A DNA stretch of 64,000 nt from contig NZ_CP044222.1 of NCBI RefSeq assembly GCF_008727795.1, positions 3,632,686 through 3,696,685 on the forward strand, read 5' to 3'. The notes under the pieces were generated by a model. The model saw only the letters and a list, made by a program, of their open reading frames with translations, was not told the origin of the DNA and searched no databases. Made by a program: the position numbers and the translations under genes. The DNA comes from Nitrincola iocasae (GTDB lineage Bacteria; Pseudomonadota; Gammaproteobacteria; Pseudomonadales; Balneatricaceae). Positions 8,026 through 39,425 of this stretch are shown piece after piece (within the stretch, counting starts at the first letter, position 1; each line of letters starts with the position of its first letter).

Positions 8026-9729
<1,704 letters not shown>

Positions 9730-27707: not shown

Positions 27708-28511
27708 TCAAGAACCGAAGCCATCAGGCAAAGGCGCGCGCAACCAGGTTTCTGAAATACTATTCAAGGTGCCATCTTGCAATGCCTGGGCAATGATTTC
27801 ATTCACCCGTGCCTGCAGCTCAGCTTCACCTTTGTTCAGGCCGATATAACAAGGTGAGTCACGCAGCATGAACTTGGTCACTGGCGCTTGCTCAGGGCGA
27901 CGCTCGGCAATTTCTGCCGCTACCAGGTTGCCAGTGGCAATCAACTGAACCTGTCCGGAGAGATAGGCTGACAAAGTGGTATTGTTGTCTTCGAAACGCT
28001 GCAGTGTGGCATCAGCTGGCAGGACTTTTTCCAGCTCCATATCTTCTACCGCGCCGCGGGTGACCCCTACGACATGACCACTAAGATCTTCTGGCGCGGC
28101 TACAGCGATGTCCGGGTTACCAAAAACGCCCAGAAAGAAAGGCGCATAAGCATCGCTGAAATCTATGGCCCGTTCACGCTCTTCGTTTTTACCCAGGCTG
28201 GAGATCACCAGGTCGGCACGTCCAGTTTGCAGGTAAGGTATGCGGTTGGCACTGGTCACGGTAATCAATTCAACACTCACACCCAGCTGTTCACCGATGT
28301 AATTGGCCATATCGATATCATAGCCACGCGGCTGCATATCGGTACCAACAGAGCCGAAAGGTGGAAAATCCTGGGGTACCGCCACCCGAATCACACCACG
28401 TTCTTCAATCTCACTCAGCAGGTTTGCCTGGGCACTGATCGACAGGGTTACAGCCACCGCCGCCACACTGGCGAGCAGTCCGCGCTTAAATGTTTTAAAG
28501 GTTTTCTTCAT
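27708..28511 (-). CDS. ABC transporter periplasmic substrate-binding protein (family 3 solute-binding protein).
   Basis: Signal peptide followed by a type-3 solute-binding-protein fold. First gene of the transporter operon. Confidence 0.8.
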   Translation of the reverse strand: MKKTFKTFKRGLLASVAAVAVTLSISAQANLLSEIEERGVIRVAVPQDFPPFGSVGTDMQPRGYDIDMANYIGEQLGVSVELITVTSANRIPYLQTGRADLVISSLGKNEERERAIDFSDAYAPFFLGVFGNPDIAVAAPEDLSGHVVGVTRGAVEDMELEKVLPADATLQRFEDNNTTLSAYLSGQVQLIATGNLVAAEIAERRPEQAPVTKFMLRDSPCYIGLNKGEAELQARVNEIIAQALQDGTLNSISETWLRAPLPDGFGS

Positions 28512-28870
28512 CTAGCTATCCTCAGTCAGGTTGGTCGTTATTGCAACTTTTGATTCACACAAAATAGCTTCTGCAACAAAAGTGCCAAAACCAAACCGCA
28601 AAGAAAAAAGAGTGAAAATATGCTTAAGATCAACTAAATGAAAAAAACTTATGCCGGTATGACGAATATCTAGGCTAGTATTCTGAATTCAATCGGTGCA
28701 TCTACGCACTAAAATGTGGCAAAACACATCTACGAGGCCGGGGAACCCAAGGCTAACTCGCCCCACTATGGATTGGTACATGACTCTAAGAAATTTTTCA
28801 TCAAATAGAAATGAGAATCGAATAGCATCATGCCGACCACTTTTGCTATGATGCATTAACACGAAAAACC

Positions 28871-28905
28871 ATTACATGTAAGCTTGACATTTTACATGTA
28901 ATGAC
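28871..28905. promoter_or_regulatory. Pair of TTACATGTAA palindromes, 19 bp centre-to-centre, flanking a TTGACA -35 box. Candidate operator/promoter for the downstream PspA-flotillin array.
   Basis: Exact 10-bp palindromes at about 28874-28883 and 28893-28902 with TTGACA at about 28885-28890. They lie roughly 20-45 bp upstream of the ATG at 28920, in a very AT-rich divergent intergenic region. Confidence 0.35.
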
Positions 28906-28919
28906 TAAATATTATCACC

Positions 28920-29573
28920 ATGAAAAAACCAAAAACATCAGCCGACTACCAACGTGAGTATCGCAAACGTCTACGCGATCAAGGCCTAGTTAAAAAGGAG
29001 GTATGGATTCATCCGAACCACGCTAGGATTTTGTCTCAATACGAGCAGGTTTTTCGCAACCCTTTGATTACTAGCGGTAAAACATGCAATACCCAACTTA
29101 AGGAAATAGAGGTAAGTATGAACAAAAAGAACACATGGACTACACATTCTCTGTTTGAAGCCCTGCTTGAAACAGAAATGGTGTCGTCGAATCAAGCTAG
29201 TATAAAGCTGGAAGAGAGTACAAAAGCAACGATCCACATGGTATTGCATTCCATGGGAGATCTTCCTGTTTATGTTACCGTCGCCGGTGAACAGATTCTG
29301 GCTGAAAGTCTTTTATGGCCCCAGGATATGGTTAATGATGTCGTGGCCTTCAATGATGAAGTTCTCGTTACCCATAAAATTTTCCCCCTATCGACAATCA
29401 GTCTGGATACCTTACCGACAGGTGAGCGTTATTACACCATGTTCGGCGCGCTGAGTGCTTTTTCATCACTCTTCGATGTTGTTTTTGAAATTGAGTTATT
29501 AGCAGACAATGTCATCAAGGCAGCGGATGCCTATTCAAAATTCTTGCCTAGTCAAATGATGGTGGAGGTGTAG
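28920..29573 (+). CDS. Hypothetical protein with a basic N-terminal region. First gene of the PspA-associated array, possibly a YjfI/DUF2170-like PspA partner.
   Basis: Open frame immediately followed (1-nt gap) by the PspA-family gene. There is an internal ATG at 29118 with a strong GAGG Shine-Dalgarno sequence, so the true start is uncertain. Confidence 0.5.
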   Translation: MKKPKTSADYQREYRKRLRDQGLVKKEVWIHPNHARILSQYEQVFRNPLITSGKTCNTQLKEIEVSMNKKNTWTTHSLFEALLETEMVSSNQASIKLEESTKATIHMVLHSMGDLPVYVTVAGEQILAESLLWPQDMVNDVVAFNDEVLVTHKIFPLSTISLDTLPTGERYYTMFGALSAFSSLFDVVFEIELLADNVIKAADAYSKFLPSQMMVEV

Positions 29574-29574
29574 C

Positions 29575-30282
29575 ATGGCCGTATGGAGTAAGTTAATGAC
29601 AGCTTTGCGTGGCAATGCTAATGCGCTCGGTGAGTCCATAGTCGACAGCCAGGCAATGGTGATACTGGATGAAGAGATTCGCAATGCCGGGACAGAGCTT
29701 AATCAAGCCAAACTCGCTTTAGCAGAAATCATGGCCAAGCACCGTGTTGCAACTGATAAGCTAACGGTGCTTAAAGGCCAGGTTACAGAGTATGAAGACT
29801 ATGCACTTGCCGCACTGGAAAAAGGCAAAGAAGACTTAGCACAAGAAGTGGCCCTAAAAATTGCCAATATTGAAACTGAATTAGCGCAACAGCAAGAAAT
29901 CGTCGATCACTACGGTAAAAGTGTTGATCAACTGCGCACTGCTGTCCAATCTGCAGAAGGTAACTTAAAGCGCTTACGTCAACAAGCCGATACGGTGCTT
30001 GCTACTGAGTCGGTTCAACGCGCCCAAGCCGCCGTTGCCAGCCGCTATGCCGGCGGTCAAGCCAAGTTACAAACCGCTATGGATTCGCTGGAGCGAATTA
30101 AAATGAAACAAGCCGAAAATGCGGCCAGAATGGAATCTGCTCAGGAATTAGAAGCCGAAAGTCGAGGCGATGTGTTAACCGAAAAATTACGAGCAGCCGG
30201 TATTACGCCACAGGAAACAAGCGCTACCAATGTTCTAAATCGGTTAAAGGAAAAACAACAAACCAAGCAGAATAATGCTTAA
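29575..30282 (+). CDS. pspA: PspA/IM30-family protein (phage-shock protein A / Vipp1 / ESCRT-III superfamily).
   Basis: MAVWSKLMTALRGNANALGESIVDSQAMVILDEEIRNA is the PspA-family N-terminus. The 235-aa protein is entirely coiled coil. Confidence 0.85.
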   Translation: MAVWSKLMTALRGNANALGESIVDSQAMVILDEEIRNAGTELNQAKLALAEIMAKHRVATDKLTVLKGQVTEYEDYALAALEKGKEDLAQEVALKIANIETELAQQQEIVDHYGKSVDQLRTAVQSAEGNLKRLRQQADTVLATESVQRAQAAVASRYAGGQAKLQTAMDSLERIKMKQAENAARMESAQELEAESRGDVLTEKLRAAGITPQETSATNVLNRLKEKQQTKQNNA

Positions 30283-30321
30283 AATATAGATTAAGCGATC
30301 ATTCAATAGGAGTAATTAACA

Positions 30322-30963
30322 ATGGACGTTTTTATTTTAATTATTGCCAGCTATCCCGTGGCAGTTTTTACTTCTCTCCTATTGGTAGTTGTAATCTACT
30401 GGTTAATAGCAATTCTCGGATTAATTGATATTGACACTCTGGATCTCCCAGAGATCGATGCTGATGCAGAACTTGATAGCCTGGAAGGGTTAACAGGTGT
30501 TGCGGGCTTTCTTATAAAGCTTGGCTTTCAGGGAATTCCGGTGATGGTTATATTGAGTCTACTGACACTGGTAGCCTGGTGGACTTCCTATTTTTGTGTC
30601 TGGCTACTTCCTTTTGCTTTAAATGGCATTTGGAAATTGGTATTAGGCACTGCCATCTTAATCACTTCCTTTATTTTTGCGCTCTTGATCACTCGATTTT
30701 TAGTGATCCCTTTAAAGCCGCTATTTAGAAAAAACACAGCAAGAAGCAAGAGAAGTTTTTTAGGCCAAGCTGTTGTCATACGAAGCTCCCGCGTTGACGA
30801 GCATTTCGGACAAGCTGAGTTCAACGATGCTGGAGCCGGTTTGATCTTAAATATTCGTGCAAAAACACCCAATCAGCTCAAAAAAAATGATCGTGTCATA
30901 CTACTTGAATACCTTGAAAAAGATCATGTCTATCTGGTAATCCCCGAAAGGGACTTTTATTAA
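30322..30963 (+). CDS. yqiJ: YqiJ/NfeD-like inner-membrane protein (DUF1449-like). Flotillin partner.
   Basis: N-terminal TM helices plus a C-terminal soluble OB-like domain. Located directly upstream of the YqiK-like flotillin, as in the E. coli yqiJK pair. Confidence 0.6.
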   Translation: MDVFILIIASYPVAVFTSLLLVVVIYWLIAILGLIDIDTLDLPEIDADAELDSLEGLTGVAGFLIKLGFQGIPVMVILSLLTLVAWWTSYFCVWLLPFALNGIWKLVLGTAILITSFIFALLITRFLVIPLKPLFRKNTARSKRSFLGQAVVIRSSRVDEHFGQAEFNDAGAGLILNIRAKTPNQLKKNDRVILLEYLEKDHVYLVIPERDFY

Positions 30964-30980
30964 AAAATTGGAGAATTAGA

Positions 30981-33020
30981 ATGGATTTGTCACTCTTGAT
31001 GCCTTTACTAACAGGCGTTGCAATTTTTGTCATATTTATCCTTGGAGTGCTTGCTTTATTCAAGGCATTTTATGTCAAAGTACCTCAGGGTTGGGCGTTA
31101 ATTATTAATGATATGTCAAAAACACCCAAAGTGTACTTTACAGGCGGGATGGTATTACCTGTAATACATAAAAAAGAAGGTATGAAAATATCTTTAATAA
31201 CACTTGAGGTTGATCGACGGGGCAAAGAAGGTTTAATTTGTGCGGACAACATGAGGGCTGACATTAATGTTCATTTCTATCTTCGAGTGAATGAAACCGC
31301 CGAAGATGTTTTGAAGGTTGCTAAAGCAATTGGTGTTGATCGAGCATCTGATCGTCTAGCCGTTAACGAGCTCTTCTCAGCTAAATTTTCAGAAGCATTA
31401 AAAACTGTAGGTAAGCAAATAGATTTTGTTAAGCTATTTGAGGATCGCCAATTTTTCCGCGACAAAATTATCGAAACCATTGGTAATGACTTAAATGGTT
31501 ATGTGCTGGAAGATGTGGCAATTGATTATCTGGAACAAACTCCACGAGAAGCACTTGATGCAAACAATATCCTTGATTCCGAGGGTATTCGTAAGATTAC
31601 GGAGTTAACTGCCAGACAAAATGTTATTACTAATGAGTTAGAACGTAATAAACAATTAGCAATAACCAAAAAAGATGTTGAAACACGTGAAGCCATGCTG
31701 GCGTTAGAACGCCAACAAGCCGATGCCGAAGCACGACAAAAGCGCGAAATCGACACAATCAAAGCACGAGAAGCCGCTGAGACACAAAAAACAGTTGAGG
31801 AAGAACGACTAAGAGCTGAAACCGCTCGAATTGAAACTGACTTACGCTTGAGTATCCAGGAAGAAAACAAACAACGTGAAATCGAAGTTGCACAACAAAA
31901 TAGAGAACGCGCTATTGCCGTTGAAGAAGAAAAAGTAAAAAGAGCCAGAGAGCTAGAACAAGTCGCTCGTGAAAAAGAGGTGGCACTACAGCAAATTGAA
32001 AAAGAAAAAGCGTTAGAAATTGAGAAGAAAAACATTGCTGCTGTGGTACGAGAACGTGTCGCGGTTGAAAAAACCGTTGCCGAGGAAGAAGAGCTTACTA
32101 AAGCTGTGCGGGCAATTTCCGAGGCTGAACGTCTGAAAGATGTGACTATCTTACATGCGACAGCTCAAGCAGAAGAAGAATTGGTTAAACAAGTAAAATC
32201 GGCTGAAGCCGCTGAAATTACAGCGAAACATCGTGGCCAGGAAGTCAATATTTTGGCACAGGCTGAACTGGAATCAGCCAGCAAAACCGCAGAAGCCAAG
32301 AAAAAGCTCGCCGAAGGGATTGAGGCAGAAGAAGCAGCAAGCGGCTTAGCCATTGCCAAAGTCAAAATAGCGAATGCCCAGGCGATTGAAAAAGAGGGTG
32401 CGGCTGAAGCGCGTGTATTAGAACTAAAAGCACTTGCCGATGCGCAGGGTATGGAACAGCGAGGATTGGCTGAAGCACGCGTTAAAACAGCGAATGCCGA
32501 AGCAACGGAAAAACAGGGTCTGGTTGAGGTCCATGTGTTAGAAGAGCGTTTGACAGCAGAGGCTCAAGGCGAAGAACAATTAGGCATGGCACGTGCTAAA
32601 GCGAATAAAGAACAAGGTCTCGCCGAAGCGGCCGTCATTCGAGAACGCTTCAAAGCCGAAGCCGATGGTCTGGTTGAGAAGTTTACAGCGATGAACTCTA
32701 TGACCGAAAATTCTCGCGAGCATGAAGAGTTCCGCATGAAACTTGAAAAGGATTTCGAGCAAGCATTGGCCTCTATTGCGGCTAATAAAGACATCGCCGC
32801 CGATCAAGCCACAGTTCTCGCCTCCGCACTGGGTAATGCCAACATTGATATTGTCGGTGGCCAGGGTGATTATTTTGATACCTTTGCTAAATCATTATCC
32901 TTGGGTAAAGCAATCGAAGGCGTGGCTGGAAAAAGTCCTAACATTCAGGCCTTACTGAACAAGTTCTTATCCGGCCAGCTTCCAACTGGTAATGAAAGCA
33001 AAGAAAGAGCGGATAGTTGA
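30981..33020 (+). CDS. yqiK: Flotillin-family SPFH/band-7 protein (YqiK-like) with long EA-rich coiled-coil repeats.
   Basis: N-terminal TM plus an SPFH domain (KVPQGWALIINDMSKTPKVYFTGGMVLPVIHK..ISLITLEVD). This is followed by about 400 aa of ERQQADAEARQKRE/EA repeats typical of the flotillin domain. Confidence 0.85.
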   Translation: MDLSLLMPLLTGVAIFVIFILGVLALFKAFYVKVPQGWALIINDMSKTPKVYFTGGMVLPVIHKKEGMKISLITLEVDRRGKEGLICADNMRADINVHFYLRVNETAEDVLKVAKAIGVDRASDRLAVNELFSAKFSEALKTVGKQIDFVKLFEDRQFFRDKIIETIGNDLNGYVLEDVAIDYLEQTPREALDANNILDSEGIRKITELTARQNVITNELERNKQLAITKKDVETREAMLALERQQADAEARQKREIDTIKAREAAETQKTVEEERLRAETARIETDLRLSIQEENKQREIEVAQQNRERAIAVEEEKVKRARELEQVAREKEVALQQIEKEKALEIEKKNIAAVVRERVAVEKTVAEEEELTKAVRAISEAERLKDVTILHATAQAEEELVKQVKSAEAAEITAKHRGQEVNILAQAELESASKTAEAKKKLAEGIEAEEAASGLAIAKVKIANAQAIEKEGAAEARVLELKALADAQGMEQRGLAEARVKTANAEATEKQGLVEVHVLEERLTAEAQGEEQLGMARAKANKEQGLAEAAVIRERFKAEADGLVEKFTAMNSMTENSREHEEFRMKLEKDFEQALASIAANKDIAADQATVLASALGNANIDIVGGQGDYFDTFAKSLSLGKAIEGVAGKSPNIQALLNKFLSGQLPTGNESKERADS

Positions 33021-33099
33021 GGCGGCGTAAATAGCATCAATTTATTAAACAGCGCTTAGCTTAGGCTGAGCGCTGCTCATCTAGCAAACCATAAGGATA

Positions 33100-36000
33100 G
33101 TGAAGATGTCAGAATCCAGCCACTCTCAGGATTCCATTCAGAGTGAACTCGACCCATCTGCCGAGTCACCAAGCGTTACTGAAAATGCAGCGTATGATGT
33201 GATTCGAAGTCGATTGCTGACGCAGGGAGAGCAACTGCAATCACAAGTCGAGGCACTCAACCAAGCGCGCTTATCTGAGTTTGGCCAGATTGATTTAGCA
33301 GTGGCTCATCGATTTAGAGTCCGAACTGAGAACAATTGCATTGCCCGTGACATTGTTCAGGTGGGAGAGTATCTGCTATTTGGTTACAACGTCTTTATTG
33401 GATTAAAGAACACTACTGCCGTCAATGATGTGTTTGCTCTATATCGGCACAATGCCGAAGCTGATTCGTTTGAAATGGCAGAGGTGGCGCTAGAGGGCAC
33501 ATTTCTATCTGAAGTCGCTTTTGTAAACGACTTTACCGAGCTGTACACCTACTACAATAATGCGCGCCTGCTTCAATTACAGGTACGCAACAACCGCTTA
33601 TTAGCCTCTTTCCAGATAGGTGAACGCAGCAGCGATATACGCGTTTTTCGTTGGCAGATAAGTGCTGATGCTAAATCAGTCACCTACATAGACAATCGAG
33701 GTGAACGCGACATTAAGCTACCACCCTCACAGGATTTTGAGTGGACAATGCTAGGCCGCGAACACATGGTGAATGGTAAATACCCTCATTTTTCAGTTCT
33801 GGATCGTATTTTTGTTGATACCCTGGGCGGAGACCTGACGGTAAAAATTGAAAACAATACTGAAGCAGGGAAAGGGATATACTCTGAGCCAGTTGATGAA
33901 ACTAATCAATCGCTTAACGATATTGAGCTAGGGTATGCTTTGCTCGGCGACCTTATACTCCTACGTGTACTACCCTATCGCGAAACGCACGTCCGTTATT
34001 TTGTATTCAACAGCTTTAACCAGGAAGTCAAACGTATTGATGATATAGGCGAAGCCTGTATCCAACTACCTGAAAACCATGGCATCATTTTTCCTGGTGG
34101 CTGCTATTTAGTCCAGGGCGGCTTGCGCTACTTTAGCAATGACCAAAAAGGACTGGTTTTCCAACGATTTGTTCGCTCACCTAATGGTGAGGATGTGCTT
34201 TATGTATTTTACCAAGCGACTGATGGGGTCGTAGCTTTATACCCATACAATATGATTAATAAAGCCTTGAGCAACCCGATTATTAGTCATGGCTATGCTT
34301 TGGCGGATGATGGTCGTTTAATTGTCTTTACCGCCGAAGAAGAGCCGTCTCGCACTCATCCCATGCAGGTATGGCACACACCTTTTTTCTCTGAAAGCTA
34401 CGCCAGTCAGCAACCTACAAGCCAATCATTTTATGGTCGTATTGGTAATCCCGAGCTGGTACGTGGCATATCAGAAATCTACTCGACTATACGTTTAATC
34501 CTGCAACAAGATGCCAGCGCCCACCATTACAATTCATTGTCACAAGCCGCTGCACGTTTATTTGATCACTTTTACTGGTTATCCAGCCCTGAGTTGGAGC
34601 AGATCGCAGGCTTACTTAAAGAGGTCTCCTCTACAGCCGAGCTGGTGCTCGATGAGTATGAAAAAGTTAAAAGCATTCAGTCACATGCTGAAGCGGCCTT
34701 AGTAGAAGCCAAGCAACGGCAGCAACAATTACTGTCATCTTTGCGCCCTGACAACTGGCAAACTCCAGAACCTTTTGTGCAAGCCTTATCGGAGCTAAGA
34801 CAGCAACGCGGGCATCTGTTAACCATACGTGAGTTACGCTACATAGACGTCGCTCAGGTAGATGAAATGGAAGCGGAGGTCATACAGGCAGAAGTAGGAA
34901 TAACAAATGCTACTGCCAACTTCCTGCAGCAAGACACGGCACTGGAACCTTACTACGCACAAATCAAATTACTGACAGAAGCAGTTGATCAGGCCAACTC
35001 TAGCATCGAGTTACAACCCACACTCAATGAGCTGAAAGCTCTCTCAGAAAGCCTGGATCTGCTTTCAGAGTTAATTGCCGGGTTAAAAATTGATGATGCC
35101 AATCAACACACCCGCATCATTGACTCAATCAGTGAGATCTACGCACAAACCAACCAGATTAGAGCGCGTGCACGCAACCGAGCACAGAGTTTTGGCAGTG
35201 ATGAAGCGCGGGCGCAATTTGCAGCCCAGTTCAAACTGTTTAGCCAGTCGATTAACAATGCCCTCGCTTTGGCACAAACCCCGGATCAATGCGATGAGCA
35301 GCTGTCTCGACTGTTTGTTCAGTTAGAAGAACTTGAAGGACAGTTCTCGGAATACAATGAATTTTTAAATGACATTCTCACCAAGCGTGAGGAAATTCAA
35401 GAGAGCTTTGAAGCACACCGCCAACGTTTAACTGACTCACGAAACCAACGCGCTCAGTCAATTTTTGATGCGGGCAGCCGTATTTTGGTGAACCTGTCTC
35501 GACGCTCTTCACGGTTTAAACGTGCCGATGAGTTAAATACCTATTTTGCATCTGACCCCATGGTGCTTAAGCTGATAACCTTAGCTCAAGAGCTTCGCCA
35601 GCTGGATGACAGTGTTAAGGCTGACGACATTGAATCCCGGCTTAAAATGGCAAAAGAGCAAGCCATTAGAGCACTACGCGACCAGGTAGATCTATTTGAA
35701 GAGAATGGAACAGTCATCAAACTGGGTCCTCGCCATCGTTTCAGTATTAATACCCAAGAGCCCGAACTCACTCTAATTCCAAGAGGTGATGCGTTAGTTT
35801 TACACCTGACAGGTACTGACTATTACGAAACTATCGATGACCAGCGTTTAGTCAAAGCTAAACCCTATTGGCAGCAAGCACTGGAATCTGAAAATGAACA
35901 GGTTTATCGCGCAGAGTTTTTGGCTGATAGCATTCTGCACGCGGCACACAGCCAAACAGAAGGTTTGAGTTGGGCCGTCTTAGTGGAAGCAAGCACTCAA

Positions 36001-38055
36001 TTTGAAACCTTGCTGGCCAAGGTTCGAGAGTACAGCGGGTCCAGATACAGAGAAGGCTATGAACGAGGCATTCATGATCATGATGCGGCCCGTATTTTAC
36101 ATAAGCTCATCCCTGCCCGTGAAGCCGCGGGGGTGTTGTACTTACCCGCCGATGCACGTGCTATTACACTGTTGTTCTGGTGGCAAACTCAACATGAAAC
36201 CGCCCAGCTACGCTGGCCCCAATCAGCACGCTCTGCGGCGCAGTTGCGTCGCCTGTTTAACACCACTCAAGCCATTCAATTGCTGGAAACTGAAATAGCA
36301 CAACACTTAGGTGCCTATGTCGATGCGCAGCGCTTACCCCTGCAGCAGCAGGGTATCAGACAGGGTGCCGAGTTTCTGGTGGCGACATTAAGTCACCCTC
36401 ATATTGACTATGTGGTCTCTAAATATGCAGAGCAATTAACGAAACAACTTGAAGCCAGTGTAGATGATCAAAGCTGGCAAGGTTTTCAAGCCGCATTAGC
36501 AGAGCTAGACGGGGATATTGGTGATCAATGGGCTCTGGTTGAAGCCTGGCTAAGTGCGCTGGTTCAGTATAGCGGTGCTGACGAATTACGCCCCTACATA
36601 CCCGAAGCTGTTTTACTGATACTGAACCAAGACCGCGAACCCATAAAGGCTTTGCAGGTGGATCTCAGCTTCAGGGTTACTGAGCTGTTAGGTGAACATC
36701 CGCGTATTGCTGAGCAACAACTCCTAATGCGCCTTGATGATTTTAATGCGCGCTTAAGTACCTTTAGACAGCAATGGTTACCGGCTTATCAACAATACCT
36801 TCTCGATCGGGCTGAGGTCGTTCGTGAAGCACGTCAAACCATACGTGTCGATGAGTTTAAAGCACAACCGCTGAGTTCTTTCGTTCGCAATCGATTAATT
36901 AACGAAGTGTATCTACCCATTATCGGCGACAACCTCGCTAAGCAAATGGGTACCGTGGGAGATAGTGGCCGCACAGATTTGATGGGGCTATTGATGATGA
37001 TTTCACCACCCGGTTATGGCAAAACCACCCTAGTGGAGTATGTTGCTAATCGGCTTGGATTAATTTTCATGAAAATTAACTGCCCGTCTTTAGGGCATGA
37101 TGTGTTGTCTCTTGATCCCCAGCAAGCCCCAAATGCAACAGCAAAGCAGGAACTGCATAAGTTGAACTTAGCCTTAGAGATGGGCAACAATGTGATGCTG
37201 TATTTGGATGATATTCAGCATACTCATCCGGAATTTTTGCAGAAATTCATCTCACTCTGTGATGGCAGTCGGCGCATTGAAGGTGTCTGGAAGGGCCGCA
37301 CCAGAACCTATAATATGCGCGGTAAGAAGTTTTGTGTGGTCATGGCGGGTAACCCTTATACGGAATCGGGTGAAGTCTTTAAAATCCCGGATATGCTGGC
37401 TAACCGAGCGGATATTTATAACCTGGGTGATATCCTGGGTGGCCAGCAAAACGCGTTTGAACTGTCGTATATTGAAAACTGTCTGACCTCGAACCCAATA
37501 TTAGCGCCCTTGGCGACCCGAGAGTTAAGTGACTTTTACAAAATTGACGCCATGTCTCGTGGAGAACAAATTGCCAATGCGGAGCTTCAGCACAGCTATT
37601 CCAATGCCGAGCTCAATGAAATGATATCTGTGTTGCAGAAGTTACGCATAGCTCAAACGATCATTTTGAAAGTGAATCAACAATATATTGCCAGTGCTGC
37701 ACAAGCTGATGAATACCGAACTGAACCTCCATTCAGACTGCAGGGTTCTTATCGCAACATGAACAAACTGGCTGAGAAAGTTACGGCGGTAATGAACGAT
37801 GATGAGTTACAGCAAGCCATTGATGACCTCTACCAGGGTGAAGCCCAGCTACTAACCACCGGCGCAGAAGAAAACTTACTTAAGCTCGCTGAATTACGTG
37901 GTACTTTAACTGCAGCACAAGCTCAGCGATGGCAGCAGATAAAGCTGGACTTTGTTCGCAACAATGCCTTTGGCGGGGCGGATTCAGATACAGGCCAACA
38001 GGTTGTAGTGCAACTAGCTGACATAGCAAAAGCATTAAAGCAACCATCTCACTAG
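33100..38055 (+). CDS. 1651-aa multidomain protein: beta-rich N-terminal domain, long coiled-coil middle, and a C-terminal MoxR/dynein-type AAA+ ATPase. Function unknown.
   Basis: A single uninterrupted ORF. The AAA+ motifs cluster near 37.0-37.45 kb: Walker A SPPGYGKTT, Walker B MLYLDDIQH, sensor-1 VVMAGNPY and an Arg finger ANRADIYNL. Confidence 0.7.
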   Translation: MKMSESSHSQDSIQSELDPSAESPSVTENAAYDVIRSRLLTQGEQLQSQVEALNQARLSEFGQIDLAVAHRFRVRTENNCIARDIVQVGEYLLFGYNVFIGLKNTTAVNDVFALYRHNAEADSFEMAEVALEGTFLSEVAFVNDFTELYTYYNNARLLQLQVRNNRLLASFQIGERSSDIRVFRWQISADAKSVTYIDNRGERDIKLPPSQDFEWTMLGREHMVNGKYPHFSVLDRIFVDTLGGDLTVKIENNTEAGKGIYSEPVDETNQSLNDIELGYALLGDLILLRVLPYRETHVRYFVFNSFNQEVKRIDDIGEACIQLPENHGIIFPGGCYLVQGGLRYFSNDQKGLVFQRFVRSPNGEDVLYVFYQATDGVVALYPYNMINKALSNPIISHGYALADDGRLIVFTAEEEPSRTHPMQVWHTPFFSESYASQQPTSQSFYGRIGNPELVRGISEIYSTIRLILQQDASAHHYNSLSQAAARLFDHFYWLSSPELEQIAGLLKEVSSTAELVLDEYEKVKSIQSHAEAALVEAKQRQQQLLSSLRPDNWQTPEPFVQALSELRQQRGHLLTIRELRYIDVAQVDEMEAEVIQAEVGITNATANFLQQDTALEPYYAQIKLLTEAVDQANSSIELQPTLNELKALSESLDLLSELIAGLKIDDANQHTRIIDSISEIYAQTNQIRARARNRAQSFGSDEARAQFAAQFKLFSQSINNALALAQTPDQCDEQLSRLFVQLEELEGQFSEYNEFLNDILTKREEIQESFEAHRQRLTDSRNQRAQSIFDAGSRILVNLSRRSSRFKRADELNTYFASDPMVLKLITLAQELRQLDDSVKADDIESRLKMAKEQAIRALRDQVDLFEENGTVIKLGPRHRFSINTQEPELTLIPRGDALVLHLTGTDYYETIDDQRLVKAKPYWQQALESENEQVYRAEFLADSILHAAHSQTEGLSWAVLVEASTQFETLLAKVREYSGSRYREGYERGIHDHDAARILHKLIPAREAAGVLYLPADARAITLLFWWQTQHETAQLRWPQSARSAAQLRRLFNTTQAIQLLETEIAQHLGAYVDAQRLPLQQQGIRQGAEFLVATLSHPHIDYVVSKYAEQLTKQLEASVDDQSWQGFQAALAELDGDIGDQWALVEAWLSALVQYSGADELRPYIPEAVLLILNQDREPIKALQVDLSFRVTELLGEHPRIAEQQLLMRLDDFNARLSTFRQQWLPAYQQYLLDRAEVVREARQTIRVDEFKAQPLSSFVRNRLINEVYLPIIGDNLAKQMGTVGDSGRTDLMGLLMMISPPGYGKTTLVEYVANRLGLIFMKINCPSLGHDVLSLDPQQAPNATAKQELHKLNLALEMGNNVMLYLDDIQHTHPEFLQKFISLCDGSRRIEGVWKGRTRTYNMRGKKFCVVMAGNPYTESGEVFKIPDMLANRADIYNLGDILGGQQNAFELSYIENCLTSNPILAPLATRELSDFYKIDAMSRGEQIANAELQHSYSNAELNEMISVLQKLRIAQTIILKVNQQYIASAAQADEYRTEPPFRLQGSYRNMNKLAEKVTAVMNDDELQQAIDDLYQGEAQLLTTGAEENLLKLAELRGTLTAAQAQRWQQIKLDFVRNNAFGGADSDTGQQVVVQLADIAKALKQPSH

Positions 38056-38120: not shown

Positions 38121-39425
38121 TTGGACTTCTTAAAGGAATTTAGAATGACACGTTATACAAGTACACTGCGTCATTGCCGTTCACTGTTGGTGGGTGTTAG
38201 TTTGTTACTGCCCCTTACCCTGCTCTCGGCCTGCGCTTCGACGCAATCAGAGTCTTCACCGATTATGGCATCTAACACCAGCCAGGGAATCCCACAGGCG
38301 GTAGAACAAATCAACCAGCGGGAAAGCTTTGACGCCTGGCTCGAGGCATTCCGTCGTGATGCAGCGACTCAAGGGATTAGTCCCCGGGCACTCTCGGCAC
38401 TGGATAATGTGCGCTATCTGGAACGCGTGATCGAGCTCGACCGTTACCAGCCTGAATTTGTTCGTCCCATTTGGGAATACCTGGATAGTGCCGTATCCCC
38501 CACCCGGGTCAGCAACGGTCGAGAGAAGTTGGCCGAGCATGGTCAAACGGCGATGCAAATGCAGCAACGTTATGGTGTGCCTGCTGAAATTATCGTCGCT
38601 ATCTGGGGTATTGAAAGTAATTATGGCGGCAACTTCGGCAGTTTTTCAGCACTCAGTTCGTTTGCAACCCTAGCCTACGACGGTCGGCGTAGTGACTTTG
38701 CCCGCGGAGAGTTGCTGGCCGCGCTGCGTATCATCGACAGTGGTGATATTGCTGCAGACGAGATGATTGGCTCCTGGGCAGGTGCCATGGGCCACACTCA
38801 GTTTATTCCTTCCAGTTTTGAAACCTATGCCCAGGATGGTGATGGTGATGGTCGTCGAGATATCTGGGGCAGTATTGCCGATGTGATGGCGTCGACGGCT
38901 AATTATCTGGCTCGATCCGGTTGGCAGACTGGACAGCCTTGGGGAGTAGAGGTCAAGTTACCATCAGGCTTTGACTATGCCCAAACCGAGCGTCTTAGCA
39001 GCGCCGAATGGGCCACTCAAGGGGTACAGGCTTTGAACGGCCCACTGCCGACCTTCGACAGTGCCGCCGTGATCGTCCCGGCAGGTGCTCAGGGGCCAGC
39101 GTTTATGGTCGGAGCCAATTTCCGCACTATCCTGCGCTATAACAACGCCACCAGTTATGCCTTGGCCGTAGCCACCTTGAGTGATGCGATTGCCGGGCGT
39201 GCAGGCATTCAACAACCCTGGCCGCGTGATCAGCTACCCTTAACCCGTGCCGATGTGCGTGAGCTTCAGCAAAGGCTGAATGCACTGGGTTATAGCGTCG
39301 GCGAGCCCGATGGGATTTTGGGGCCGAATACACGTAAGGGTTTGGGAGTCTTCCAACAGGACCAAGGGTTAGTGGCTGACGGCTTTGCTAACCAGGCGGT
39401 GTTGGAGTTGATCAGGCAGCGTTAA
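38121..39425 (+). CDS. mltB: Lytic murein transglycosylase (MltB family) with a C-terminal peptidoglycan-binding domain. Lipoprotein.
   Basis: Lipobox LLSACAS. SLT_2-like core. C-terminal PG_binding_1 repeat (LQQRLNALGYSVGEPDGILGPNTRKGL). Confidence 0.8.
   Translation: MDFLKEFRMTRYTSTLRHCRSLLVGVSLLLPLTLLSACASTQSESSPIMASNTSQGIPQAVEQINQRESFDAWLEAFRRDAATQGISPRALSALDNVRYLERVIELDRYQPEFVRPIWEYLDSAVSPTRVSNGREKLAEHGQTAMQMQQRYGVPAEIIVAIWGIESNYGGNFGSFSALSSFATLAYDGRRSDFARGELLAALRIIDSGDIAADEMIGSWAGAMGHTQFIPSSFETYAQDGDGDGRRDIWGSIADVMASTANYLARSGWQTGQPWGVEVKLPSGFDYAQTERLSSAEWATQGVQALNGPLPTFDSAAVIVPAGAQGPAFMVGANFRTILRYNNATSYALAVATLSDAIAGRAGIQQPWPRDQLPLTRADVRELQQRLNALGYSVGEPDGILGPNTRKGLGVFQQDQGLVADGFANQAVLELIRQR

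Follow-up and report, generated by a model that had tools for sequence, protein, structure and literature searches.

On membranes, SPFH proteins assemble into cages or clamps. In Pseudomonas aeruginosa, the published SPFH protein PaFlo3 (PA14_16180; PMC13086221) is the product of bacD, one of six genes (bacA to bacF) that are co-transcribed and whose products are all up 6- to 13-fold in a bacA mutant (Wallart et al., PMC10948618). This bac operon is responsive to membrane and biofilm conditions (PMC2587700, PMC10948618), and PA3728-PA3732 are jointly induced on phage infection (PMC12041424). PA3728 is listed as 'ATPase' (PMC8190622), and PA14_16160, which occupies the NfeD position, as 'short NfeD' (PMC13086221). 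Ravi et al. (2024) described this kind of operon, one product of which is 'a novel AAA+ ATPase', and proposed for it an ESCRT-like, ATP-dependent remodelling of a membrane-bound polymer (PMC11237479). Here we analyse a stretch of 64,000 nucleotides (nt) from Nitrincola iocasae (contig NZ_CP044222.1, positions 3,632,686 to 3,696,685), referred to as the window, and in it a giant ATPase whose counterpart by synteny is BacE (PA3728/PA14_16190).

The order bacB-bacC-bacD-bacE on one strand, with a BacA-like gene first, is common to the window and the P. aeruginosa bac operon. In comparison with a P. paraeruginosa locus (L019), the gene products of the window are 57% (bacB, PspA), 40% (bacC, short NfeD), 69% (bacD, flotillin/PaFlo3) and 58% (bacE) identical. 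The giant in the bacE position of L019 shows the same domain order as here, namely DUF3686, DUF7902 and a C-terminal AAA+ module, at 57-58% identity; it is equated with PA3728 because of synteny and the published six-gene description, not by direct sequence comparison. The bacF position holds a PLDc_2 gene in L019 and an MltB-like transglycosylase gene in the window. We favour the reading, at a probability of roughly 55%, that the giant is an ATP-driven remodeller of a cytoplasmic flotillin-NfeD assembly with or without PspA. Our confidence in any specific substrate is much lower.

The giant ATPase family and its domains

The first-pass annotation, a model's reading of the sequence, had reported an open reading frame (ORF) of 1,651 amino acids (aa) at 33100..38055 on the plus strand. 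It exists as claimed, counted from a GTG, and is the longest of the region. The ATG at 33106 is the likelier start, because the ribosome-binding site AAGGA precedes it and the resulting product of 1,649 aa equals the database protein P0001 (100% identity, 100% coverage, same length). All residue numbers refer to this 1,649-aa form. The giant is a soluble cytoplasmic protein, and the annotated lack of a transmembrane (TM) helix stands with a highest 19-residue Kyte-Doolittle mean of 1.32.

The N-terminal domain, which had been given as one that could not be identified, is named by a Pfam search. DUF3686 (PF12458) matches aa 44-490 over model positions 2-448 of 448 (E=3e-191, 636 bits against a cut-off of 25) and is followed in domain order by DUF7902 (PF25472; aa 612-694, E=6e-25), both being Pfam domains of unknown function. 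DUF7902 and the C-terminal AAA+ module have the order and spacing seen in other members, and five distant or unusually long members carry the same three Pfam regions and no others. The giant is a member of the DUF3686-DUF7902-AAA+ giant ATPase family, labelled 'DNA repair ATPase' by NCBI. Profile searches thereby lead to a catalogued family, but to one without a known role.

A word-indexed homologue search (E<=1e-10) gave more than 5,450 clusters of similar full-length proteins, so that the protein, described before as extremely large for the bacterial cytoplasm, is neither rare nor large for its kind. The best 120 clusters all measure 1,640-1,880 aa and each span 98% of the query or more. Among named relatives, a Nitrincola nitratireducens protein is closest (79% identity), and many Gammaproteobacteria proteins reach 56-58% identity, in both cases over at least 98% of the length. 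Whole-length alignment with Streptomyces, Deinococcus and Hymenobacter proteins yields 42-49% identity, with about 45% for the Streptomyces giant. The family is widespread in at least six phyla. It spans Actinomycetota (Streptomyces, Micromonospora, Nonomuraea), Deinococcota and Bacteroidota (Hymenobacter) and is also found in Gemmatimonadota (Longimicrobium), Desulfobacterota (Candidatus Adiutrix) and Zetaproteobacteria. Most homologues (1,750-1,800 aa) possess a C-terminal extension of ~100 aa with the conserved tail consensus ...PxVEVxNQPVPG...SIFPLVRSMDKK..., which has no counterpart in the giant. Its short C-terminus (end at 38053, compared with L001-L080) is shared by Nitrincola-like relatives and by several Enterobacterales and Gilliamella proteins.

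NCBIfam and PADLOC hold no model for the giant, and a PDB sequence search with the whole protein gave matches at the P-loop level only. The names given to family proteins by the sources are 'DNA repair ATPase', 'AAA family ATPase' and 'MoxR-like ATPase'. A literal role in DNA repair is scarcely credible. It draws on an inherited label alone (Pfam DUF3686 description, NCBI and UniRef names), one that stands on many named records and for which we found no supporting evidence. Against it, Pfam detects no domain of DNA-binding, nuclease or SMC/Rad50/ABC type, DUF3686 is mentioned in no searchable paper, the conserved neighbours are all membrane proteins, and the P. aeruginosa operon responds to the membrane and biofilm conditions cited above. 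A layout as in SMC, Rad50 or RecN is likewise not seen: there is no SMC_N or ABC match, and the nucleotide-binding motifs of the giant are all confined to a stretch of 150 residues close to the C-terminus.

The AAA+ region is the best-conserved part of the giant (92-95% column consensus). Its four motifs were found where they had first been placed (aa 1300, 1365, 1411 and 1432) and are not degenerate, but identical or nearly so in homologues of six phyla. Near-identical there are ISPPGYGKTT, DD[IV]QH, RRIEGV..G...T[YF]..RG[KR], MAGNPYTE[ST]G, PDMLANRAD and LQGSYRNM. The hallmarks of an active ATPase, i.e. Walker A GxxGxGK[ST], Walker B hhhhD[DE], a polar sensor-1 residue and an arginine finger, are kept across the family. 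ANRADIYNL is what we take to be the arginine-finger segment, its analogue being LPxAxxDRF in MoxR/AAA_5. Judged by these motifs, the module appears intact and active. To call it an orphan was fair, since 901 of 1.84 billion representatives match at E<=1e-3 (388 at E<=1e-30), nearly all of them at residues about 1200-1650 of similarly long proteins (1,600-1,900 aa); shorter ones look like gene fragments.

The assignment to a clade is less clear-cut. AAA_5 (dynein-related) is the only AAA model in Pfam that spans the whole P-loop domain of the giant (positions 2-127 of 139, 25.3 bits against a cut-off of 22), and its cover is full in every member tested. PF00004 matches the giant at positions 2-71 of 131 only, and by its first half only in most members tested, while AAA_3, the model of MoxR proper, does not match the giant at all. 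In the AlphaFold2 model, two strands (aa 1390-1403, predicted local distance difference test (pLDDT) 60-80) precede the sensor-1 strand and follow helix 3. The residues conserved in this predicted hairpin are R1389, R1390, G1393, W1395, T1401, Y1402 and R1405. From beta2 to helix 2, the invariant residues 1326-1345 take the form of a loop in the model, with no helix-2 hairpin. Foldseek returned nothing below E=1e-3 for the module. Its weak matches were RuvB, NorQ, CbbQ, ClpX, HslU, ClpA and MCM, and no classic-clade protein was among the 50 best. When the module profile was compared with the PDB, only alpha0, Walker A and beta2 aligned, best with Rix7 (E=3e-5), p97 and Rpt3 and also with RuvB. 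The stretch from alpha0 to Walker A thus resembles in sequence the classic-clade proteins Rix7 and p97, whereas the stretch from Walker B to the arginine finger fits the AAA_5/MoxR pattern. Moreover, the normal partner of a MoxR-type ATPase is a VWA-domain protein, and no VWA domain was found in the operon genes here or among the recurrent neighbours of related loci.

Hence the MoxR/dynein type proposed by the first-pass annotation is the nearest kind, in view of AAA_5 and the hairpin, but weakly so, as an AAA_3 match, a VWA partner and a helix-2 hairpin are missing. Its exclusion of the classic Vps4/FtsH clade agrees with the half-match of PF00004 and with the Foldseek result, but not with the classic-like stretch from alpha0 to Walker A. 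The module may weakly be placed in the pre-sensor-1-hairpin group, nearest to MoxR/midasin, without being a demonstrable member of any named family.

The N-terminal region is beta-rich as annotated (~28 strands, aa 65-424), but its composition is not notable for Gly, Tyr or Asn. It was assigned as 'beta-propeller' by Ravi et al. (PMC11237479); as profile comparison shows no repeats among the putative blades, this is neither confirmed nor excluded. Residues 450-1250 had been read as a coiled coil of heptad-like character that may act as a lever or spacer. AlphaFold2 instead gives helical bundles (430-860) and then a globular domain (890-1250), which leaves the lever unsupported as stated. A degenerate second AAA+ domain in the middle region was considered and rejected, with all hhalign probabilities below 1%. 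Both aa 65-424 and aa 890-1250 are large, confidently modelled domains without clear relatives among solved structures. Between the bundles and the globular domain lies LG(P)RHxFxxNTQ, which is kept across phyla from Gammaproteobacteria to Actinomycetota and Bacteroidota. We regard this motif as a candidate for partner binding, as it is conserved and yet located in a low-confidence linker.

Conserved neighbourhood and proposed function

The gene neighbourhood was analysed in the 80 closest of at least 591 loci found in species-representative genomes, whose ORFs were searched with the proteins of the window. Upstream counts refer to the 69 loci in which the DNA 5' of the giant extends for 4.6 kb or more. 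Four distant loci (Streptomyces, the metagenome lineage L082, Deinococcus and Hymenobacter) were picked by hand.

The giant is the last gene of a same-strand five-gene operon consisting of BacA-like, PspA, short NfeD/YqiJ, flotillin and giant genes. The BacA-like protein scores 267 bits with NCBIfam BacA, under the cut-off of 300 bits, and is a homologue, not a certified equivalog. The flotillin and NfeD-like proteins match nothing in Pfam even at E=10, and a PDB sequence search with the flotillin gave nothing useful; their identities are therefore drawn from homologues. For the flotillin, identity amounts to 69% with the PaFlo3 counterpart in P. paraeruginosa, 50% with the protein encoded beside the Streptomyces giant (E=1e-180) and 41% with a Band_7-positive protein encoded next to a distant giant. 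The annotated position of the giant directly after a flotillin gene is thus upheld by homology. The NfeD-like protein, with about three membrane segments by reading of its sequence, is 28-46% identical to the same-position gene product in 69/69 loci, and its Hymenobacter counterpart is annotated DUF1449 (YqiJ family).

NfeD-like and flotillin genes are located immediately 5' of the giant in all 69 loci, with a median flotillin-giant gap of 118 nt among the related loci. The BacA-PspA pair is found upstream in 45 of the 69, and both genes are missing in 23 (e.g. Stenotrophomonas, Xenorhabdus, Glaciecola). Hence NfeD-flotillin-giant is the invariant unit and flotillin, not PspA, the constant partner; PspA-BacA is a frequent add-on. 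The distant loci have the orders 165 aa, 681 aa, giant (Streptomyces), 276 aa, 690 aa (Band_7), giant (L082) and 198 aa, 652 aa, giant (Deinococcus), with no BacA-PspA upstream in Streptomyces and Deinococcus. Hymenobacter shows five genes: 'chaperone Tir', PspA/IM30, DUF1449 (YqiJ family), 722 aa and giant.

This distribution bears on the idea that the giant is a bacterial counterpart of Vps4 which disassembles the polymer of PspA, an ESCRT-III superfamily member, with flotillin as membrane platform only. PspA and a BacA-like partner do share the operon here and in the 45 loci, an ESCRT-like ATP-dependent remodelling was proposed by Ravi et al. (PMC11237479), and bacterial PspA has no known Vps4-like ATPase (PMC7619361). 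However, the 23 loci as well as those of Streptomyces and Deinococcus keep the giant without BacA-PspA upstream, where PspA may be encoded elsewhere in the genome, a MIT-like domain was not found in the giant, and its AAA+ module falls outside the classic clade of Vps4. We regard this idea as rather unlikely.

The downstream add-on genes vary but are all membrane-related (rhomboid, PLD-like, TelA). A rhomboid protease gene follows the giant in 16 loci, and its start mostly overlaps the stop of the giant or lies within a few bases of it. This gene, of 185 aa, starts 3 nt before the stop in L002, L003, L007, L016, L020, L024, L056, L066 and L078. Such an overlap points to translational coupling. 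SPFH, rhomboid and AAA+ proteins in combination recall the quality control by Erlin/Derlin/p97 in eukaryotes and by YqgP/FtsH in bacteria. In 13 Xanthomonadales loci (including L036, L037, L039, L045, L046, L061 and L064), TelA (toxic anion resistance) is encoded 0.3-0.8 kb downstream of the giant. In most of the TelA loci without BacA-PspA, a protein of ~230-250 aa, rich in Ala and Gln, is encoded between giant and TelA.

Quality control of membrane proteins has to be weighed as a function for the giant itself. As its motor, the giant would extract or unfold damaged membrane proteins held in a flotillin-NfeD microdomain, together with rhomboid where encoded, similar to p97-Derlin-Erlin or FtsH-YqgP. 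This differs from remodelling of the scaffold in the substrate only, clients taking its place. Besides the rhomboid genes, published work on relatives fits this: FloA-NfeD stabilise unfolded proteins, which they hold in membrane microdomains without ATP (PMC11222466), and SPFH cages enclose AAA+ proteases elsewhere, as HflK/C do with FtsH (PMC13220708). Two elements that are pore-lining in related ATPases, the loop following beta2 and the pre-sensor-1 hairpin, are moreover invariant, although the former has no aromatic pore-loop motif. With rhomboid in a minority of loci and absent from the window, no protease domain in the giant and no known client protein, we consider quality control an unlikely function, if one to keep in mind.

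In about 20 loci a PLD-family (HKD) gene follows the giant. Large nucleoside triphosphatases (NTPases) are common in defence systems, and the giant could accordingly be imagined to sense infection in an anti-phage or abortive-infection module with the PLD-like protein of some operons as effector. The induction of PA3728-PA3732 on phage infection (PMC12041424) would fit, but it is also the classic behaviour of envelope-stress (Psp) systems. PADLOC gave no meaningful match for any of six proteins, PspA reaching coiled-coil-level noise only, and the window lacks a PLD gene. The giant is absent from all 50,697 phage records. Among 72,556 records of plasmids, 13 carry it, and these are mainly chromids or megaplasmids; on the same records a mobile-element origin was rejected. 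The same gene order across phyla at 40-58% identity rather fits a vertically inherited housekeeping stress module, and a defence function seems very improbable.

Coming back to remodelling of the flotillin-NfeD assembly, the favoured reading, Lys residues follow the single TM helix of the flotillin, and in the NfeD-like protein a Lys/Arg-rich stretch comes after the final TM segment. By the positive-inside rule, the soluble parts of both would face the cytoplasm, the compartment of the giant. The C-terminal AAA+ module would form a ring and hydrolyse ATP, while docking of this ring onto the flotillin-NfeD assembly might fall to the beta-rich domain at the N-terminus, the rods of helical bundles and the middle domain. 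ATP hydrolysis could then remodel the flotillin scaffold (opening, disassembly, turnover) or free client proteins held there during envelope stress. Where present, PspA and BacA may add membrane sealing and regulation. In favour of this reading are the constant NfeD-flotillin partnership, the invariant ATPase motifs, the membrane-related downstream genes and the literature cited above on bac expression, on FloA-NfeD (PMC11222466), on HflK/C with FtsH (PMC13220708) and on PspA (PMC7619361). The first-pass idea of a mechanochemical remodelling enzyme agrees with the operon context and the published prediction (PMC11237479).

Several points weigh against this proposal. The operons are devoid of the VWA-domain partner usual for MoxR-type ATPases, and the AAA+ core, the least confident globular part of the giant, is only moderately modelled (pLDDT 44-87, P-loop <50). 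Deletion of PaFlo3 in P. aeruginosa cut biofilm by only about 20% (PMC13086221). Our sample consists of the 80 loci closest to the query plus four hand-picked distant ones, and gene neighbourhood cannot separate scaffold, PspA or client proteins as the substrate.

Pfam already lists the family, a computational description of the operon context exists, and the member from Pseudomonas has a name. An experimental study of BacE or its homologues was not found in the searchable literature. The giant adds one more member to a known, functionally uncharacterised family, at a locus that is ordinary for it. Since operon context and prediction were already published, the first-pass finding stays within that frame, and the instance in the window, without the usual C-terminal tail and without a PLD gene, adds little on its own. 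The family as such is of interest, as a candidate motor for flotillin/PspA systems and for its two large domains without clear structural relatives. According to a 2025 review, a Vps4-like ATPase appears absent from bacteria (PMC7619361). Tentatively, the family may represent the ATP-driven motor so far missing from the membrane-scaffold systems of bacteria, that is, a ring ATPase opening or dismantling flotillin (SPFH) cages and, where present, PspA/ESCRT-III polymers. It is a candidate because of its fixed architecture in at least six phyla, the invariant catalytic motifs, the adjacency to NfeD-flotillin and the co-regulation with PspA in P. aeruginosa. If true, it would be the functional equivalent of Vps4 or p97 in bacteria, built with the two large domains without clear relatives among solved structures. 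How flotillin scaffolds and PspA polymers are disassembled or reset in bacteria is a question for which the family is a concrete candidate, and flotillin-NfeD rather than PspA is marked as the constant partner for experiments.

Features of the locus

The positions of all features are summarised in Table 1.

Table 1. Features of the bac-like operon and the giant ATPase in window coordinates.
Feature	Position	Strand	Details
Candidate operon promoter, sigma-70-like TTGACA-18-AATATT	28884-28913	+	consensus match only; promoter region 28872..28913
DUF2170/YjfI/BacA-like gene (CesT/Tir-type chaperone fold)	28920..29573	+	Pfam DUF2170 E=6e-44; PMC10948618, PMC11237479
PspA/IM30 gene (ESCRT-III superfamily), BacB counterpart	29575..30282	+	Pfam PspA_IM30 E=4.5e-46
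Short NfeD/YqiJ-like membrane protein gene, 213 aa	30322..30963	+	hydrophobic N-terminal two thirds, soluble C-terminal domain
Flotillin/SPFH gene, 679 aa	30981..33020	+	one N-terminal TM helix, SPFH-like region, long Glu/Ala-rich coiled coil
Giant ATPase gene	33106..38055	+	1,649 aa + stop; mechanical ORF begins at GTG 33100
DUF3686	33235..34575	+	aa 44-490; beta-rich core aa 65-424, ~28 strands, pLDDT about 80-90
Helical-bundle region, spectrin-repeat-like	34393..35685	+	aa 430-860; helices of 15-50 residues (AlphaFold2 model)
DUF7902 within helical-bundle region	34939-35187	+	aa 612-694
Motif LG(P)RHxFxxNTQ	35719..35760	+	aa 872-885; invariant or nearly invariant columns; linker pLDDT <50
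Middle globular domain	35767..36855	+	aa 888-1250; mostly helical, small sheets, compact, pLDDT >90
AAA+ alpha/beta domain	36868..37455	+	aa 1255-1450
Walker A SPPGYGKTT	37003..37029	+	aa 1300-1308
Walker B LYLDDIQH	37198..37221	+	aa 1365-1372
Predicted pre-sensor-1 beta-hairpin RRIEGVWKGRTRTYNMR	37270..37320	+	aa 1389-1405; AlphaFold2 model strands 590-595, 598-603
Sensor 1 VVMAGNPY	37336..37359	+	aa 1411-1418; N1416
Putative arginine-finger segment ANRADIYNL	37399..37425	+	aa 1432-1440; R1434
Helical lid and C-terminal region	37456..38052	+	aa 1451-1649
LQGSYRNM, invariant	37738-37761	+	aa 1545-1552; R1550 candidate sensor-2 arginine
MltB-type lytic murein transglycosylase gene with C-terminal PG_binding_1	38121-39425	+	gene after the giant

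The sigma-70-like site is the only good one before the bacA-like gene. A palindromic decamer, TTACATGTAA, occurs there in two exact copies (28872-28881 and 28892-28901) which are 20 bp apart and bracket the -35 hexamer. Their arrangement over the predicted promoter suggests repressor control, operator-like for a dimeric regulator. Sigma-54 dependence is reported for the bac operon of P. aeruginosa, but the operon strand of the window is without a sigma-54 site. The sole intergenic match, the perfect consensus TGGCACTTTTGTTGCA (TGGCAC-N5-TTGCA, 28572-28587), is on the minus strand and faces a divergent SBP_bac_3/BPD_transp_1/ABC_tran amino-acid transporter operon (28511 down to 25670). A sigma-54 promoter for the operon was therefore rejected.

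The gap of 85 nt between flotillin and giant holds a stem-loop at 33050-33075 with an 11-bp stem, one G-U pair and a 4-nt loop (CAGCGCTTAGC-TTAG-GCTGAGCGCTG). No T-run follows, and folding of the gap as a whole shows no significance (z = -1.3). Relative to flotillin, the stem may lower expression of the giant or stabilise it.

The MltB-like gene was rejected as part of the system, as it recurs beside the giant in 0/80 related loci. PLD, rhomboid and TelA genes were not found downstream of the giant in the window. The G+C content across the bac-like operon (28000-34000) is 0.41-0.47 versus 0.53 on both flanks (24-28 kb, 38-40 kb). Further upstream, Rfam 5_ureB_sRNA (RF02514) matches at full length at 8179-8461 on the minus strand (120.7 bits), pointing to a urease (ureB) gene on the other strand.

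Comparison with known ATPase systems

With the MoxR/AAA_5 group (CbbQ, NorQ, RavA; the midasin and dynein rings) the giant has in common the succession of Walker B, short helix, hairpin and sensor 1, 'NP' right after the sensor-1 Asn, an LxxR arginine past sensor 1 and a candidate sensor-2 Arg. Unlike this group it exhibits a single AAA+ module which ends ~1,250 residues of other domains, and neither an AAA_3 match nor a VWA/MIDAS partner nor a clear helix-2 hairpin insert was seen.

Vps4 acting with ESCRT-III in archaea and eukaryotes is resembled by the position of an AAA+ gene beside PspA, a member of the ESCRT-III superfamily. In contrast to Vps4, the giant is of another AAA+ clade, four times larger and without MIT domain, and PspA is dispensable for the conserved unit (45/69).

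The pairing of an SPFH scaffold with a membrane AAA+ machine is shared with FtsH-HflK/C and with the mitochondrial m-AAA protease-prohibitin complex. The giant differs from these by having neither a protease domain nor a TM helix, by its predicted action on the cytoplasmic face and by its partner, a flotillin-type SPFH protein with a short NfeD. Taken together, the proposed mechanism would parallel Vps4/ESCRT-III and FtsH/HflK/C in its logic, driven by a different motor that appears nearest to MoxR/midasin.

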